Shown here piece by piece: positions 2,541 to 6,726 of a stretch of DNA of 6,745 bases. The stretch is from an archaeon. Lineage in GTDB: Archaea; Iainarchaeota; Iainarchaeia; Iainarchaeales; CSSED10-239. Within the stretch, counting starts at the first letter, position 1. Each line of letters opens with the position of its first letter. A program made the translations under genes and the position numbers. Location: the NCBI GenBank assembly GCA_035387745.1, contig DAOOON010000034.1:1-6745 (forward strand), read 5' to 3'. Below the pieces are notes generated by a model. The model was not told the origin of the DNA. It ran no database searches and worked only from the letters and a program-made list of their open reading frames with translations.

Positions 2541-3617
2541 TTATTGTGCTTGTGCTGCTAAAGATTCTTGAATCTTAGAAAAACTCTCTGGGTTCTCTTC
2601 TATCCATTTTTGTAAAATTGCATATTCTGAGTTTATTCTATTTATGTCTTCTGAATACTTTTCTAAAATACTGTTTTGAAGAGTTTGTAAATTTTCTAAA
2701 AACTCGGAAGAATTATTAAACAATTCTAAATCGGCTTCAAAATATTTTCCTTGCTCTCCTGCACAATTAGCATATACTGCGGCTGATGGCTCTGAACTAA
2801 TCATATCTTTTGGTAAATATTTAATTTTGCCCGTATCAATATATTCAGACTTTAATTGCATTAATGATTCTTGTGCTAGTTTCTTACAATAACCACAATA
2901 ATAATCAGAATAAACATAAACAACAACTTTTGCATTTTCGGAACCAAAAAAGAAATCTCCTTCTTGATAAAACTGGTCTTCCACAACATTCCCGTCCATT
3001 GCTGCATCAATTTTTTCTTTTAATTCTGTATAAGTTAGATAACCGCCAGCATATTCGTTATTAATTATAATTGCAGGAGTTCCAGTTAAACCAATCATTT
3101 GTGCAAATTGTGTGTCTGTAAAAATCTTTTGTAAAATTTTTGCGTCGTTTTCTCCTATTTCTGCAGTAAGGTTAAGGTTTTCTGCAACACATGAATCTAT
3201 TTCAGTTTTATTTAAATTTAATTTGGAGGTTATTTGATCAAATATTGGCTTTTGTTTTACTTGTATATTTTCTAAAAGTTCAGTTTGTATCTTCTGACCA
3301 AATTCTGTTGTTTCAAGCATAAATGTTGAATATTTTTCTATAAATTCTTCTTCCGTTAAACTTACATTTGTATCGACAGGAGTAATTGTTATATTGTGAT
3401 CTACATCCTGATCTGTAATAATTGCCTTTTTGTTTTTTGTTAAAACAATTGTTGCAATTACTGCTCCGATTATTAAAATTATTATAATTAAAATTCCTAT
3501 AATCAAAAAAGTGTTTGATTTCTTTTTTTCTTTGTGAATTATTTCTTTCTTTTCGGTTTTAGGTTTTTTTTCAACTTTTACTTTCTTTTCTGTTTTCTTT
3601 ATTTTCTGTTTTTTCAA
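2541..3617 (-). CDS. Membrane-anchored DsbA-like (thioredoxin-fold) thiol:disulfide oxidoreductase, atypical domain order
   Basis: 358 aa. Lys-rich N-terminal tail (MKKQKIKKTEKKVKVEKKPKTEKK...). One hydrophobic helix (TFLIIGILIIIILIIGAVIATIVL, about 3441..3512), so N-in/C-out topology is predicted. CxxC active site in DsbA-family context (AKVVVYVYSDYYCGYCKKL, Cys codons 2895..2897 and 2886..2888), followed by YANCAGEQGKYFEADLELF. A separate upstream G-L-T-G-T-P-A-I-I-I-N segment matches the cis-Pro loop. The start is TTG at 3617..3615, backed by a strong GGGTGAT SD. There is no in-frame ATG nearby. Confidence 0.75.
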   Translation of the reverse strand: MKKQKIKKTEKKVKVEKKPKTEKKEIIHKEKKKSNTFLIIGILIIIILIIGAVIATIVLTKNKKAIITDQDVDHNITITPVDTNVSLTEEEFIEKYSTFMLETTEFGQKIQTELLENIQVKQKPIFDQITSKLNLNKTEIDSCVAENLNLTAEIGENDAKILQKIFTDTQFAQMIGLTGTPAIIINNEYAGGYLTYTELKEKIDAAMDGNVVEDQFYQEGDFFFGSENAKVVVYVYSDYYCGYCKKLAQESLMQLKSEYIDTGKIKYLPKDMISSEPSAAVYANCAGEQGKYFEADLELFNNSSEFLENLQTLQNSILEKYSEDINRINSEYAILQKWIEENPESFSKIQESLAAQAQ

Positions 3618-3622
3618 AATAT

Positions 3623-3629
3623 CACCCTT
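3623..3629 (-). promoter_or_regulatory. Shine-Dalgarno sequence (GGGTGAT) for the DsbA-like gene
   Basis: The minus strand reads aaaaaGGGTGATattTTG. GGTGAT is complementary to the archaeal 16S rRNA 3' end (GAUCACC), and sits 3 nt before the TTG start. Confidence 0.5.
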
Positions 3630-3659
3630 TTTTAATATGCTTAACTATAAAAATAGTAG

Positions 3660-3676
3660 TATAATATATTATATAG
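3660..3676. promoter_or_regulatory. AT-only 14-bp perfect palindrome (TATAATATATTATA, 3660..3673) with overlapping TTATATAG. Candidate TATA element(s) of the divergent promoter region.
   Basis: It lies in the 89-nt divergent spacer 3618..3706. Its centre is about 40 nt from the taw1 ATG and about 49 nt from the TTG of the DsbA-like gene. That is compatible with transcription starts about 26 nt away in both directions and short leaders. Confidence 0.3.
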
Positions 3677-3706
3677 AATAATAATAGTTTAAAAATAAGT
3701 GTTTTT

Positions 3707-4705
3707 ATGACAAAAGAATTAATATCAACAGAAAAGATAGAAAACTTAAAACATAAGCATTATGGTATGTTCGGCAAACACTCTGCTGTTGAGATTTGCG
3801 AATGGAATAAAAAAGCTCTGCGTGGAGAAGGCGTTTGCTATAAAGAAAAATTCTATAATGTCGAGTGCCACAGGTGTGCGCAAATAACGCCAGCAGTCCT
3901 TTGGTGCCATCAAAATTGTATTTTCTGTTGGCGACCCGCAGAGTATATGACTATTGATAAATTTACTACTAAAGACTATGACAACCCAAAAGAAATAATT
4001 GACGGATTATTTAAAGAAAGAAAAAAACTGCTTTCTGGTTTTGGTGGTTTTCCAAAAGTTTCTAAAGCAAAACTAAAAGAAGCAGAAGTGCCTAGCCACG
4101 TGGCCATTTCTCTTTCTGGGGAACCCACACTTTACAAGGACCTTTGGAAATTGATTAAGGAATTAAAATCTAGAAAAGAAATTAAAACCATTTTTGTAGT
4201 AACTAACGGAATGGAACCGGAAAATCTTTTGGCTTTACAAAAGCACAAAAACCTGCCAACACAACTTTATCTTTCTTTTGTTGCGCCAAACAAAGAATTA
4301 CATCTTAAAATTAATCGCCCAAAGATAAAAGACTCTTGGGAGAGATTACAAAAGACAATATGGATAATGCCAAAACTAAAATGCAGAAAGGTTATTAGAT
4401 TTACATTAATTAAAGGAATGAACGATGATAAAAAATATATTAAAGACTTTGTAAAAATCTTTGAAAAATCAAAAGCTGATTTTGTAGAAATAAAATCTTA
4501 TATGTATCTTGGATATTCTAGAAAGACTATGGCTATAGACAACATGCCAAAATATGAAGAATGCTTGAAATACGCAAAAGCTTTTGAAAAAGAATCAAAG
4601 GACTATAAGATCTCTGATACTTGTAAACCATCAAAGATAATTCTTTTAAAACATAAGAAATCAAAAGTTGATAATTTTATAATTAAGAAAAAAGGTAGAA
4701 AATAA
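3707..4705 (+). CDS. taw1: tRNA 4-demethylwyosine synthase (radical SAM; archaeal Taw1, homologue of TYW1)
   Basis: 332 aa. Radical-SAM motif CHQNCIFCWRP (C67/C71/C74). Three upstream cysteines, C31/C44/C57, are spaced 13 and 13 residues apart, as in the auxiliary-cluster cysteines of archaeal Taw1 (motif block 3797..3928). Family-typical context: KHSAVEICEWNKKAL...CYKEKFYNVECHRCAQITPA and ISLSGEPTLY. Confidence 0.9.
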   Translation: MTKELISTEKIENLKHKHYGMFGKHSAVEICEWNKKALRGEGVCYKEKFYNVECHRCAQITPAVLWCHQNCIFCWRPAEYMTIDKFTTKDYDNPKEIIDGLFKERKKLLSGFGGFPKVSKAKLKEAEVPSHVAISLSGEPTLYKDLWKLIKELKSRKEIKTIFVVTNGMEPENLLALQKHKNLPTQLYLSFVAPNKELHLKINRPKIKDSWERLQKTIWIMPKLKCRKVIRFTLIKGMNDDKKYIKDFVKIFEKSKADFVEIKSYMYLGYSRKTMAIDNMPKYEECLKYAKAFEKESKDYKISDTCKPSKIILLKHKKSKVDNFIIKKKGRK

Positions 4706-5584
4706 ATGGTTGAACTAAATTCAGAATTAAAAGCAGTAGTTGATGCTTTAAATAATGAAAAGACAATTTGTCTTTTGGCACCAAGCTTTCCTGTAGATTT
4801 TAAGTTCCCGGATATTATTCTAGATCTTAGAAGAATGGGTTTTACTAAAGTTGTGGAATTGACTTATGCTGCTAAACTTATTAATTATAAATATATAAAC
4901 ATAATAAATGAAAACCCCGAAAAACAATTTATTTGCGGTAATTGCCCAACAATTGTTAAATTAATAGAAAATCAATATCCTGATCTAAAAGACAATATTC
5001 TAGACGTTACTTCACCAATGGTGGTTATGGCGCGTTTTGTTAAAAGAGAGTTTGGGAATGATTATAAAACCATTTTTGTGGGTCCTTGCTTTGCTAAAAA
5101 AACAGAAGCCAAAGAAAATTCTGATTGCGTAGACTATGCTCTGACTTTTAAAGAGCTAATAGAAATCTATGATTATTGCGAAGAAAAAAATATTTTAAAA
5201 AATATTGAAGAAAATAAAGCAAACAGGGAATTTGATAAATTTTATAATGATGTGACAAAAATTTATCCACTTGGCGGCGGCGTTGCAAGTTCTATGATAA
5301 CAAAAGACATACTTAATCTTGAACAAGTAATTGTATGCGATGGCCCAAAATGTATAGAAAAGGCAATGTTTGATTTTACTAATAATACAAAATATAGATT
5401 TGTAGATATACTTTTCTGCGAAGGCGGTTGCCTTGGAGGACCAGGCATTGTGTGTAAGGATGATCTTGAAACAAAAAAACAAAGACTATTTGATTACAAA
5501 GAAAAATCAAGATACTACGAGCCTAATGAAAACTACGGAAAGTTCGTGCATGCTTTTGGACTGGATATAAAACGAAAGAAATGA
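4706..5584 (+). CDS. [FeFe]-hydrogenase H-domain-like / Nar1-like iron-sulfur protein, miniature (292 aa). Function uncertain.
   Basis: The three H-cluster signature regions appear in order. L1-like FICGNCPTIVKLIENQYPDL (compare TSCCPGW...YPEL), Cys codons 4934..4936 and 4943..4945. L2-like VGPCFAKKTEA (compare MPCxxKKxEA), Cys 5087..5089. L3-like DILFCEGGCLGGPG (compare ExMxCxGGCxxGGG), Cys 5417..5419 and 5429..5431. Also LAPSFPV, TSP and PLGGGVASS blocks. The ATG directly abuts the taw1 stop, and AAGGTA lies 9 nt upstream. Confidence 0.75.
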   Translation: MVELNSELKAVVDALNNEKTICLLAPSFPVDFKFPDIILDLRRMGFTKVVELTYAAKLINYKYINIINENPEKQFICGNCPTIVKLIENQYPDLKDNILDVTSPMVVMARFVKREFGNDYKTIFVGPCFAKKTEAKENSDCVDYALTFKELIEIYDYCEEKNILKNIEENKANREFDKFYNDVTKIYPLGGGVASSMITKDILNLEQVIVCDGPKCIEKAMFDFTNNTKYRFVDILFCEGGCLGGPGIVCKDDLETKKQRLFDYKEKSRYYEPNENYGKFVHAFGLDIKRKK

Positions 5585-5660
5585 ATTAGTATTTATCCCA
5601 ACGACTATCTGATTTGTTATTCCAAGATTTTAAAAAATTATCTAATAATTTATAATACTC

Positions 5661-5696
5661 TTTTTCTTCTTTATTTTTAAATTTAAATTTCTTTTT
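5661..5696 (+). terminator. Cluster of oligo-T tracts. Candidate archaeal terminator for the taw1/hydrogenase-like transcript.
   Basis: T5 runs at 5661..5665, 5674..5678 and 5692..5696, downstream of the stop at 5582..5584. Archaeal RNA polymerase terminates at oligo-T. The AT-rich background makes this weak evidence. Confidence 0.3.
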
Positions 5697-5722
5697 ATTA
5701 ATCATAATCTTCACGGATTATT

Positions 5723-5747
5723 GAATCACAGATTTAATCTGTGATTC
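5723..5747. repeat. Perfect 11-bp inverted repeat (hairpin, 3-nt loop) centred on the radA stop codon
   Basis: GAATCACAGAT (5723..5733), TTA (5734..5736, the complement of the radA TAA stop), ATCTGTGATTC (5737..5747). The right arm encodes the last RadA residues (G)ITD. Confidence 0.6.
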
Positions 5748-6726
5748 CATTTTCTGTAACTTGGTATACTGCTTCGCCGTCTGGAAGGCTTGGGGAATCA
5801 ACAAGTTTTGCAATTCTTTTTGAACCTGAACTTTTTCTTAAATAGATTCGCGTCTTTGATGCGTGCTTAACTATGTTACCGCCAATAGCATCTGTGGGGT
5901 CACCAAACAAAACATCTGGTCTTGACATTACTTGGTTTGTTACAAAGACTACAACATTATAAAGCTCTGCAATCTTTTGTAAAGTTCTCATGTGCCCATT
6001 AAGTTTCTGTTGTCTGTCTGATAACTGACCTCTTCCTACAAATTCTGATCTAAACTGGCTTGTTAAAGAATCGACAATTACAAGCTTAATGTTTTTCTCT
6101 TTTAATAGCTCTTGGGCCTTGTCTGCTAATAACATTTGGTGATTGCTATTAAAAGCTCTAGCAACAAATATGTTTTTCATAACCTCTTCAGGGTCTAGCC
6201 CTCTAAACTTTGCAATCTGTGCCACTCTTTCTGGTCTAAATGAATTTTCTGTGTCAATATAAAGAACTCCGCCGTTTAAACCCCCTTTCTCATTAGGCAA
6301 TTGTGCTAAAACACAAAGTTGGAAACACCATTGGGACTTACCAGAAGCAAACATTCCATAGACTTCTGTAATTGACTGGCTTTCAATTCCTCCGCCAAGT
6401 AATTCGTCTAGTTCTTTTGAACCTGTTGTTAATCTTGCTATTAGCTTTCTTCTATCAAGTATCTTCTCTGCAGTCTCAAAGCCCATCTCTAGTGAATCTC
6501 TTGCTGCTTTAATTGCTTTAATTGCGGTTCCTTCGCCAATACCTGCAACTGCAACTAATTCACTTGGGGAAGCAACAGCTATTGCTTCTAGAGAATCGTA
6601 GCCTGCAGCTAAAAGCTTTTCAGCCGAAGCTGGGCCAATGCCTGGAAGGTCTGTTATTGACATCTCTTTACCTGGTTCTCTCTCTGTTTCTTCTAAATTT
6701 TCTTGATTTTCAAATTCTAAACTCAT
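5734..6726 (-). CDS. radA: DNA repair and recombination protein RadA (archaeal RecA/Rad51 homologue)
   Basis: 330 aa. N-terminal helix-hairpin-helix domain ([25 protein letters not shown]). Walker [10 protein letters not shown] (6334..6357). Walker B-like KLVIVDSL. Typical motifs [31 protein letters not shown] and GGNIVKHAS. An alternative start at M22 (6663..6661, [10 protein letters not shown]) is possible. Confidence 0.95.

Follow-up and report, generated by a model that had tools for sequence, protein, structure and literature searches.

Group E, the smallest type of [FeFe] hydrogenase known so far, was defined for enzymes of DPANN archaea that average 286 residues (Greening et al., Cell 2024, PMC11216029). 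The Fm enzyme of Candidatus Forterrea multitransposorum has a single [4Fe-4S] cluster, binds synthetic [2Fe]adt with well-defined H-cluster states in Fourier-transform infrared (FTIR) spectra and turns over H2 in vitro in both directions, being "clearly biased toward H+ reduction"; it was taken as a monomer by its authors (PMC11216029). Here we analysed a 6745 nt stretch of contig DAOOON010000034.1 from an archaeon of the Iainarchaeota, hereafter the window, with a GC content of 31.6% and six large open reading frames (ORFs). Two of these, taw1 for a radical S-adenosylmethionine (SAM) enzyme and hydA for a hydrogenase assigned to group E, follow each other directly on the forward strand, and this gene pair is the subject of our study.

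For group E, an exposed [4Fe-4S]H cluster was reported. The closed Forterrea genome was reported to be without the HydEFG maturases, which are missing from most archaeal genomes bearing [FeFe] hydrogenases, and an alternative maturation pathway has been postulated in the literature. Pyruvate:ferredoxin oxidoreductase (PFOR) and ferredoxin are present in Forterrea (PMC5905446). The physiological role and the maturation of group E were left as open questions (Cell 2024, PMC11216029).

The upstream gene belongs to the TYW1/Taw1 family. Archaeal TYW1 was assayed solely with dithionite, with or without methyl viologen, and its natural reductant is unknown (PMC8941971), in agreement with what the original prediction, made from the sequence of the window alone, had stated for archaeal Taw1. 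Eukaryotic TYW1 with its fused N-terminal flavodoxin_1 domain is the precedent for a TYW1 carrying its own reductant (Young & Bandarian 2021, PMC8941971). There, as in the window, a radical-SAM module is tied to a one-electron redox module, but the redox module of the window is a separate cistron, with an H-cluster instead of flavin mononucleotide and would presumably draw on H2 instead of NAD(P)H. There are only two systems in which the cognate electron donor of a radical-SAM enzyme is known (PMC8941971), a situation termed "a crucial gap" in the field (PMC10470005).

Both protein families were already known. New are the conservation of taw1-hydA and the association of its HydA clade with radical-SAM genes. 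No report on the taw1-hydA operon or on the wider association was found in the searchable literature; the main text and legends of PMC11216029 contain none of the terms "Taw1", "wyosine", "radical SAM" and "tRNA". The operon, together with a radical-SAM parallel in bacteria of the candidate phyla radiation (CPR), links the electron source of radical-SAM enzymes with the role of group E in a testable way. If the coupling is true, minimal organisms would take low-potential electrons for RNA and protein modification straight from environmental H2. If it is false, the Forterrea reference enzyme still sits in a housekeeping operon, and the "archaeal" group E is still widespread in CPR bacteria, which changes its evolutionary story.

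Conservation of the taw1-hydA pair

In the window, taw1 extends from 3707 to 4705 (+; 332 residues, TAA stop at 4703-4705) and hydA from 4706 to 5584 (+; 292 residues, ATG at 4706-4708). The stop-start junction at 4703-4708 (+) has a gap of 0 nt. We scanned 80 loci from species-representative genomes and 80 loci from metagenomes for the surroundings of the two genes. All 49 Iainarchaeota-type loci with upstream sequence (window included) had taw1 upstream of hydA on the same strand, and there was no counter-example; three further loci of this type, not counted among the 49, were interrupted by contig ends. The two genes were directly adjacent in 44 of the 49 loci, with gaps typically of -4 to +21 nt, and in the remaining five, one or two unrelated ORFs were located between them, overlapping both. 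Genetic linkage, as expected of a cognate reductase of a radical-SAM enzyme (a counterpart of the TYW1 flavodoxin domain or of Dph3), was found throughout as co-orientation (49/49) and mostly as direct adjacency (44). The Forterrea loci L010 and L081 shared the gene order, as confirmed by independent gene calls. Identity within the lineage goes down to 45% for HydA and to about 58-61% for Taw1.

Taw1 homologues with at least 58% identity were followed by a PF02906 gene. The shortened downstream ORF of locus L165 had no Pfam call and was shown to be HydA by tblastn on the same contig. Taw1 homologues of 51-56% identity from other Iainarchaeota/Diapherotrites had unrelated neighbours and no hydA, and the pair was also absent from the Nanoarchaeota loci. 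We looked for cryptic HydA homologues downstream of the out-of-clade taw1 genes (L083-L086) and found no similarity. Since the Taw1 homologues of 51-56% identity have unrelated neighbours, the pair marks one lineage. We concluded that taw1-hydA is a real lineage-specific operon of two known enzymes in one lineage of the Iainarchaeota (Diapherotrites, DPANN). The operon usually comprises two genes, sometimes three or four.

A Shine-Dalgarno-like, purine-rich AAGGTAG (4692-4698, +) is located within the taw1 coding sequence, 8-14 nt 5' of the hydA ATG, and GGAG, GAGG or GAAGGG elements were present at the equivalent position in L001, L002 and L004. The divergent, AT-rich intergenic region between a DsbA-like gene (-) and taw1 (+) at 3618-3706, as read from the sequence, is the presumed promoter region of the unit; it includes TATATA at 3671-3676, about 31-36 nt 5' of the taw1 ATG. 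The unit ends in the convergent intergenic region between hydA (+) and radA (-) at 5585-5733, which is too short for a ferredoxin gene. We infer that taw1 and hydA are co-transcribed; an internal promoter within taw1 is possible. The original prediction had described a taw1 stop codon directly abutting the hydA start and an AAGGTA motif in the final taw1 codons, and both were borne out by the ORFs and the sequence, the motif being located at 4692-4697. Its claim of one bicistronic unit without room for a separate promoter stood with regard to the tight junction but not with regard to the exclusion of a promoter: a TATA-like TTTTATAATT is located inside taw1 at 4675-4684, about 26 nt ahead of the hydA ATG. 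At 31.6% GC this element could be a chance occurrence.

The pair is part of a block that is syntenic across the lineage. This block comprises psmA (proteasome alpha), pop5, possibly rpp30, argS and dsbA on one strand and taw1-hydA on the other, followed by radA and, beyond it, a phosphoenolpyruvate-synthase-like gene (PEPS). Because the whole block is syntenic, the persistence of taw1-hydA is explicable by descent alone. The stretch 3' of hydA was variable and contained small ORFs, SufU-SufD-SufB-SufC (in the Forterrea sub-lineage) or a CTP synthase gene (L042, L148). We considered L042 as a case of the pair outliving all its neighbours and rejected it: there, as in L148, only the upstream block is replaced and CTP synthase is inserted downstream, while radA and PEPS stay.

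The ORFs inserted between taw1 and hydA belong to one sub-lineage of the Iainarchaeota, and the two genes were never apart by more than two of them. An unannotated ORF of 258 residues, overlapping both genes, was located there in L125 (1023-1799), L150 (3339-4115) and L127 (4232-5008, split). It has no Pfam match and harbors a G-x-G...A-I-R-R-F-K stretch reminiscent of a small kinase. L101 (4423-5001) and L102 had a different ORF of 192 residues at this site, also with no Pfam match.

The two gene products and the relatives of HydA

The taw1 product matched TIGR03972 (rSAM_TYW1) with 354 bits (equivalog cut-off 317.95), and its Pfam domains were PF04055 (Radical_SAM, 1e-16) and PF08608 (Wyosine_form, 5e-19), those two alone. 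It has no flavodoxin_1 domain and shows the single-domain architecture of the archaeal enzymes. It aligned over its full length with the TYW1 structures 2YX0 (P. horikoshii, E=2e-80) and 6DJT (M. jannaschii, E=2e-61), and the alignment with both structures covered the radical-SAM motif C67-x3-C71-x2-C74, the auxiliary-cluster cysteines C31, C44 and C57 and the Schiff-base lysine K46. All of these residues were conserved in the two aligned enzymes. Judged by its sequence, the gene product is an orthodox archaeal 4-demethylwyosine synthase (TYW1/Taw1), a radical-SAM enzyme with two predicted [4Fe-4S] clusters, and its predicted activity is the formation of imG-14 on m1G37 tRNA-Phe.

The sole Pfam match of HydA was PF02906 (residues 20-246, E=5e-41). 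The AlphaFold2 model consisted of one compact domain (pLDDT 91.3, pTM 0.90), and the top 50 PDB matches listed by Foldseek for this model were all [FeFe]-hydrogenases (E about 1e-15 to 4e-13, TM relative to the query 0.69-0.78, and 0.74-0.78 for the top matches, all of them H-domains), among them CpI, CbA5H, the HydA subunits of HydABC and a Desulfovibrio enzyme. HydA was 54-55% identical to Fm (L010) over the full length and shared a clade with it in a neighbour-joining tree without support values. Like Fm, it consists of the H-domain only, with 292 instead of 286 residues and no structural difference, and the C-x-N-C-P, PC..K..E and C-x-G-G-C motifs as well as the taw1-hydA gene order are the same in both. 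These features assign the hydA product to the already described family of group E ultraminimal [FeFe] hydrogenases, which are H-domain only. By analogy, it is predicted to lack relay clusters, its one H-cluster having an exposed [4Fe-4S]H.

Residue equivalences were taken from an alignment to CpI and from a site table over 77 sequences. The motif I-C77-G-N79-C80-P (4931-4948, +) includes C80, the equivalent of the [4Fe-4S]H ligand C300 of CpI, and N79 in place of the proton-relay C299 (TSCCP in CpI). In G-P-C128-F-A-K131-K-T-E134-A (5081-5110, +), C128 corresponds to C355, K131 to the CN-binding K358 and E134 to E361, and in F-C238-E-G-G-C242-L-G-G-P-G (5414-5446, +), C238 corresponds to C499 and C242 to C503, the Cys bridging to the 2Fe subcluster. 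The equivalents of C300, C355, C499, C503, K358 and E361 were invariant in 77 of 77 family members, as were those of A230-P231-S232 (A25-P26-S27 in HydA of the window), P301, S323-P324 (S103-P104) and P354; C355, K358, E361, C499 and C503 had unchanged equivalents across all four HydA clades. The position of C299 was never Cys among the 77 relatives: the Iainarchaeota and the CPR bacteria with genetic code 25 have the C-x-N-C-P motif, the Nanoarchaeota and other CPR have Val or Pro there. C77 is an additional Cys that was invariant in, and confined to, the superclade of Iainarchaeota and code-25 CPR.

Three other assignments of HydA were considered and rejected. A canonical group A hydrogenase was discarded on account of the missing C299-type Cys and of scores of 71 and 64 bits against cut-offs of 406 and 765. 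Both in the profile search and in the Cell 2024 tree, group C sensory hydrogenases (HydS type) come next after group E, and they share with the family studied here the lack of the proton-relay Cys; the next-best relatives in our search (P0270, P0297, P0311, P0354) carried group C-type domains (Fer4; FeS, PAS or signalling). Unlike group C, HydA of the window has no Fer4, PF04060 FeS, PAS or other signalling domains and neither a histidine-kinase nor a sigma-54 output domain. The third candidate was the Nar1/NARFL (IOP1) family, which we take to have H-domain homology with four cluster Cys and to be tied to the maturation of iron-sulfur (Fe-S) client proteins in cytosolic Fe-S assembly. In HydA of the window the H-domain starts at about residue 20, with no N-terminal Cys cluster or ferredoxin-like domain ahead of it; it also differs from this family in that it keeps the 2Fe-pocket residues and in that its orthologue is active with [2Fe]adt.

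The identities given in the original prediction, Taw1 and a hydrogenase-domain protein, agreed with the matches to TIGR03972, PF04055, PF08608 and PF02906, and its statement that the flavodoxin domain known from eukaryotic TYW1 is missing here agreed with the Pfam result. Its description of the partner as merely "hydrogenase-like" understated a member of the described group E, the Forterrea orthologue of which makes H2 in vitro (PMC11216029). The analogy to Nar1 that it had drawn proved weak in view of the missing N-terminal cluster domain and the invariant 2Fe-pocket residues.

Close homologues of HydA were plentiful in CPR bacteria with genetic code 25 (UGA = Gly), under the taxon labels SR1, Absconditabacterales and Gracilibacteria and many Peribacteria, and occurred also in code-11 CPR. 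The code-25 homologues (loci in the ranges L011-L054, L057 and L105-L167, e.g., L012 6004-6879) were 44-56% identical to HydA of the window, as close as Forterrea, shared the C-x-N-C-P motif and formed one superclade with the Iainarchaeota proteins in a rough neighbour-joining tree. This differs from PMC11216029, where group E is shown as one monophyletic clade of archaea. In public protein predictions for the code-25 bacteria, W stands in place of the expected G (e.g., WWCIGGPG), suggesting that the wrong code was used for translation.

In the code-25 bacteria, hydA was located between or beside two radical-SAM genes. The RimO-like neighbour encodes a MiaB/RimO-family methylthiotransferase (TIGR00089, 293 bits versus a cut-off of 251) closest to RimO; the HemW-like neighbour scored 173 bits against a cut-off of 205. 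The older CPR order is UvrB-HydA-RimO-HemW-NusA and that of the main clade UvrB-RimO-HydA-HemW-NusA. Since the RimO-like and HemW-like genes are adjacent to each other in the older arrangement, they do not count as two independent events. The RimO-HydA-HemW trio was relocated as a unit in L029 and L126. As in the known hydA-hydE/hydG clusters, radical-SAM genes stand beside hydA, but by family models the neighbours here are TYW1, the MiaB/RimO-family methylthiotransferase and the HemW-like protein. The group E hydA of Nanoarchaeota is located between the genes for RNase Z and GlyRS, neither of them a radical-SAM gene, and group E hydA in code-11 CPR had no radical-SAM neighbours, apart from a gene three genes away in L157.

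Two small PF04055 genes were seen elsewhere. One is convergent and immediately downstream of hydA in the Iainarchaeota locus L150 (5049-5825, -). The other, in the code-11 locus L157 (2210-2941, +), is SPL-like, is located three genes upstream of hydA and is followed by a Fic-like gene.

Among all neighbours of the HydA family, the one that recurred most widely was a gene for a membrane protein of about 180 residues with about five predicted transmembrane helices, the motif HPQWL(I/V)G..VN and no Pfam or NCBIfam match. It abuts or overlaps group E hydA, e.g., in L056 (5442-5987), L157 (4469-5038) and L101 (5884-6429), and was also present in L055, L062, L076, L078, L102, L164 and L169. Its distribution covers many unrelated lineages: Nanoarchaeota, a number of code-11 CPR and a single sub-lineage of the Iainarchaeota, in which it is located 3' of hydA. 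This protein may be the "hyd6TM" noted for group A in Cell 2024.

Possible explanations: inheritance by descent, electron supply and others

We applied several tests for a coupling of Taw1 and HydA. The mirror-tree correlation between the two (r=0.68, partial r=0.21) was not above that of the controls ArgRS, DsbA-like protein and RadA. Charge complementarity was rejected as a conserved trait: the isoelectric points in the window are 5.6 for HydA and 9.6 for Taw1, but the clade median for HydA is 9.3. Fusions of HydA with a radical-SAM domain were not present among the best 150 representatives of the HydA profile search, which were stand-alone proteins of about 290 residues first and multi-domain proteins thereafter; the eight prokaryote-type long matches that were annotated were all fusions with Fer4 and/or signalling domains, none with a radical-SAM domain.

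Our preferred reading is that Taw1 and HydA act separately and that the operon was inherited by descent. It is a tentative choice, to which we give a probability of about 0.45. HydA would couple H+/H2 to a small soluble carrier of single electrons, e.g., ferredoxin, and would mainly be a fermentative H2-evolving redox valve, as the Forterrea orthologue is in vitro. The hydA gene, with its closest relatives in code-25 CPR, would have been placed behind a constitutively expressed housekeeping gene in the ancestor of the lineage and then carried along with taw1 inside the stable syntenic block. This is the insertion history, and the in vivo direction of electron flow, that we infer. The link between Taw1 and HydA would be merely indirect, by common dependence on Fe-S clusters and on the low-potential electron economy. 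Separate action fits with the bias of Fm to H+ reduction, with its treatment as a monomer and with the presence of PFOR and ferredoxin in Forterrea (PMC11216029, PMC5905446). It also fits with the synteny of the block, with the insertions tolerated between taw1 and hydA (L101, L125, L150) and with the lack of excess co-evolution, charge complementarity and fusions, as well as with the unrelated neighbours of Taw1 outside the lineage and the non-radical-SAM neighbours of hydA in Nanoarchaeota and other CPR.

Several observations weigh against separate action. There were zero counter-examples to the pair in 49 loci, and in L042 and L148 the taw1-hydA-radA side was intact next to a replaced upstream block. 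No ferredoxin or PFOR gene adjoined hydA in any annotated locus. As Forterrea was reported to be without HydEFG, formation of the H-cluster in vivo, and hence fermentation, is putative. The recurrence of radical-SAM neighbours (Taw1, RimO-like, HemW-like, L150, L157) is left unexplained. A radical-SAM gene adjoined hydA in 50 of 75 code-25 loci and was located within two genes in 9 more; the loci without one nearby were mostly on short contigs, and a genuine loss of the adjacency was seen in one clade (L045, L046, L049, L152). Further PF04055 genes were located near hydA in L150 and L157. ORFs with a CX3CX2C motif made up 39% of the immediate hydA neighbours, compared to 1.3% of the ORFs at least three genes away. 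Three to four independent radical-SAM events were counted among about 15 context types, with about 0.4 expected (P about 10^-3 to 10^-2), an enrichment that was noticed post hoc and for which context types were counted by eye, as single-linkage grouping of HydA merged clades too coarsely. Judged post hoc in this way, the recurrence is unlikely to be due to chance.

This recurrence speaks for a different explanation, by which the C-x-N-C-P group E HydA is a dedicated or semi-dedicated donor of H2-derived electrons to the [4Fe-4S] clusters of radical-SAM enzymes, either directly, via the [4Fe-4S]H that was reported to be exposed in group E, or with one ferredoxin in between. Its clients would be Taw1 in Iainarchaeota and the RimO-like and HemW-like proteins in code-25 CPR. 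In function, HydA would correspond to the flavodoxin domain fused to eukaryotic TYW1, and it would take the place of flavodoxin/FNR in ultra-small symbionts. The conserved pair hints that HydA helps in electron supply to radical-SAM enzymes but falls short of proof. In reducing power the H2/H+ couple equals NADPH, from which the E. coli system is driven. The operon structure was kept in 49/49 loci, the radical-SAM adjacency arose independently in a sister HydA clade in another domain of life (P about 10^-3 to 10^-2), and the RimO-HydA-HemW trio was mobile as a unit. TYW1 and RimO/MiaB are counted among five radical-SAM enzymes with a second [4Fe-4S] cluster that has a free coordination site (PMC5352715). 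Fm is bidirectional (PMC11216029), cognate radical-SAM reductants are known in just two systems, and any one-electron donor can serve (PMC8941971, PMC10470005).

On the other hand, Fm is biased to H+ reduction and treated as a monomer by its authors, and in all other archaea Taw1 works in the absence of HydA. No radical-SAM genes adjoin the group E hydA of Nanoarchaeota and code-11 CPR, the adjacency was lost in one code-25 clade, and the RimO-like and HemW-like genes do not count as two independent events. The absence of a co-evolution signal, of conserved charge complementarity and of fusions, together with the post hoc nature of the enrichment, also speaks against a donor role. We regard such a role as plausible but less likely than separate action. 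To a wider proposal we give the same weight: the C-x-N-C-P HydA proteins of ultra-small archaea and CPR bacteria would be H2-powered activators of radical-SAM enzymes, a single protein in place of the flavodoxin or ferredoxin reductase chain, with genes beside those of their clients (Taw1 in Iainarchaeota, RimO-like and HemW-like enzymes in Absconditabacteria and Gracilibacteria), and the gene would have been exchanged between domains along with this role.

The original prediction had named as the case against itself an adjacency confined to this genome or its closest relatives, with random neighbours elsewhere. The adjacency reached beyond this genome to 49 of 49 loci of one Iainarchaeota lineage, with HydA identity down to 45%. 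Outside this lineage HydA and Taw1 indeed had other neighbours, but in the sister CPR clade hydA adjoins radical-SAM genes. The idea of an electron donor was kept alive because radical-SAM neighbours recur in that clade.

An Fe-S carrier or repair factor similar to Nar1/NARFL appears improbable. In this explanation a HydA with only its [4Fe-4S] cluster would supply radical-SAM clients with clusters or restore those they have; the auxiliary clusters of these clients are labile or, in RimO/MiaB, sacrificial. The reported absence of HydEFG from the closed Forterrea genome is consistent with this, as are neighbours that are Fe-S enzymes, including a methylthiotransferase-family protein, and the SUF genes next to hydA in the Forterrea sub-lineage with a cysteine desulfurase about 10 kb off. 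These SUF genes are, however, on the opposite strand and in one sub-lineage only, and HydA lacks the N-terminal ferredoxin-like domain of Nar1. Residues that serve only the 2Fe subcluster (the equivalents of K358, E361, A230-P231-S232 and S323-P324 and the bridging Cys) were invariant in 77/77 sequences, and Fm binds [2Fe]adt with defined FTIR states and turns over H2 (PMC11216029).

That the neighbouring radical-SAM enzymes moonlight as the missing maturases and replace HydE and HydG for the 2Fe subcluster would suit the recurrence of radical-SAM genes beside hydA and the alternative maturation postulated for the archaeal genomes without HydEFG, but it is very improbable, given that Taw1 scores above the TYW1 equivalog cut-off with every TYW1 catalytic residue kept, that no neighbour matches the HydE or HydG models, that the neighbours are from different radical-SAM families in different lineages and that HydA of Nanoarchaeota has no radical-SAM neighbour.

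Neighbouring genes and minor observations

The reverse strand of the window harbors four further genes. The ORF at 95-730 (-; 211 residues) overlaps argS (694-2394, -) by 37 nt and has no family match itself. A homologue has a weak match to RNase_P_p30 (E=0.0012, below the cut-off), and the homologues in relatives adjoin the genes for Pop5 (RNase P component 2), proteasome alpha, SBDS and the exosome proteins Rrp4, Rrp41 and Rrp42. From the homologue and its neighbours, this ORF probably encodes a divergent Rpp30 in the archaeal exosome/proteasome superoperon. The gene at 2541-3617 (-) encodes a membrane-anchored DsbA/Thioredoxin_4 protein. Its N-terminus is rich in Lys, it has one transmembrane helix, and a Thioredoxin_4/DsbA-like domain with CGYC is located at the C-terminal end. 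The gene is divergent from taw1, and its position was kept across the lineage with lengths of 343-540 residues. On the other side of the pair, radA is located at 5734-6726 (-).

In the Forterrea sub-lineage, a SUF cluster (NifU_N/SufU, SufD, SufB, SufC) is located directly downstream of hydA on the opposite strand, in L010 at 6865-10383 (= L081 10865-14383) and also in L009, L017, L019, L021, L103, L106 and L120. An Aminotran_5 cysteine-desulfurase-like gene is located about 10 kb away in this sub-lineage. Along with taw1 and hydA, these genes make up a local Fe-S gene island.

The representative search also returned P0248, a protein of 4122 residues with seven Fe_hyd_lg_C domains, seven small-subunit domains and, in addition, flavodoxin and FAD_binding_1 domains. 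It may represent tandem eukaryote-type HydA-CysJ genes that were merged by gene calling.

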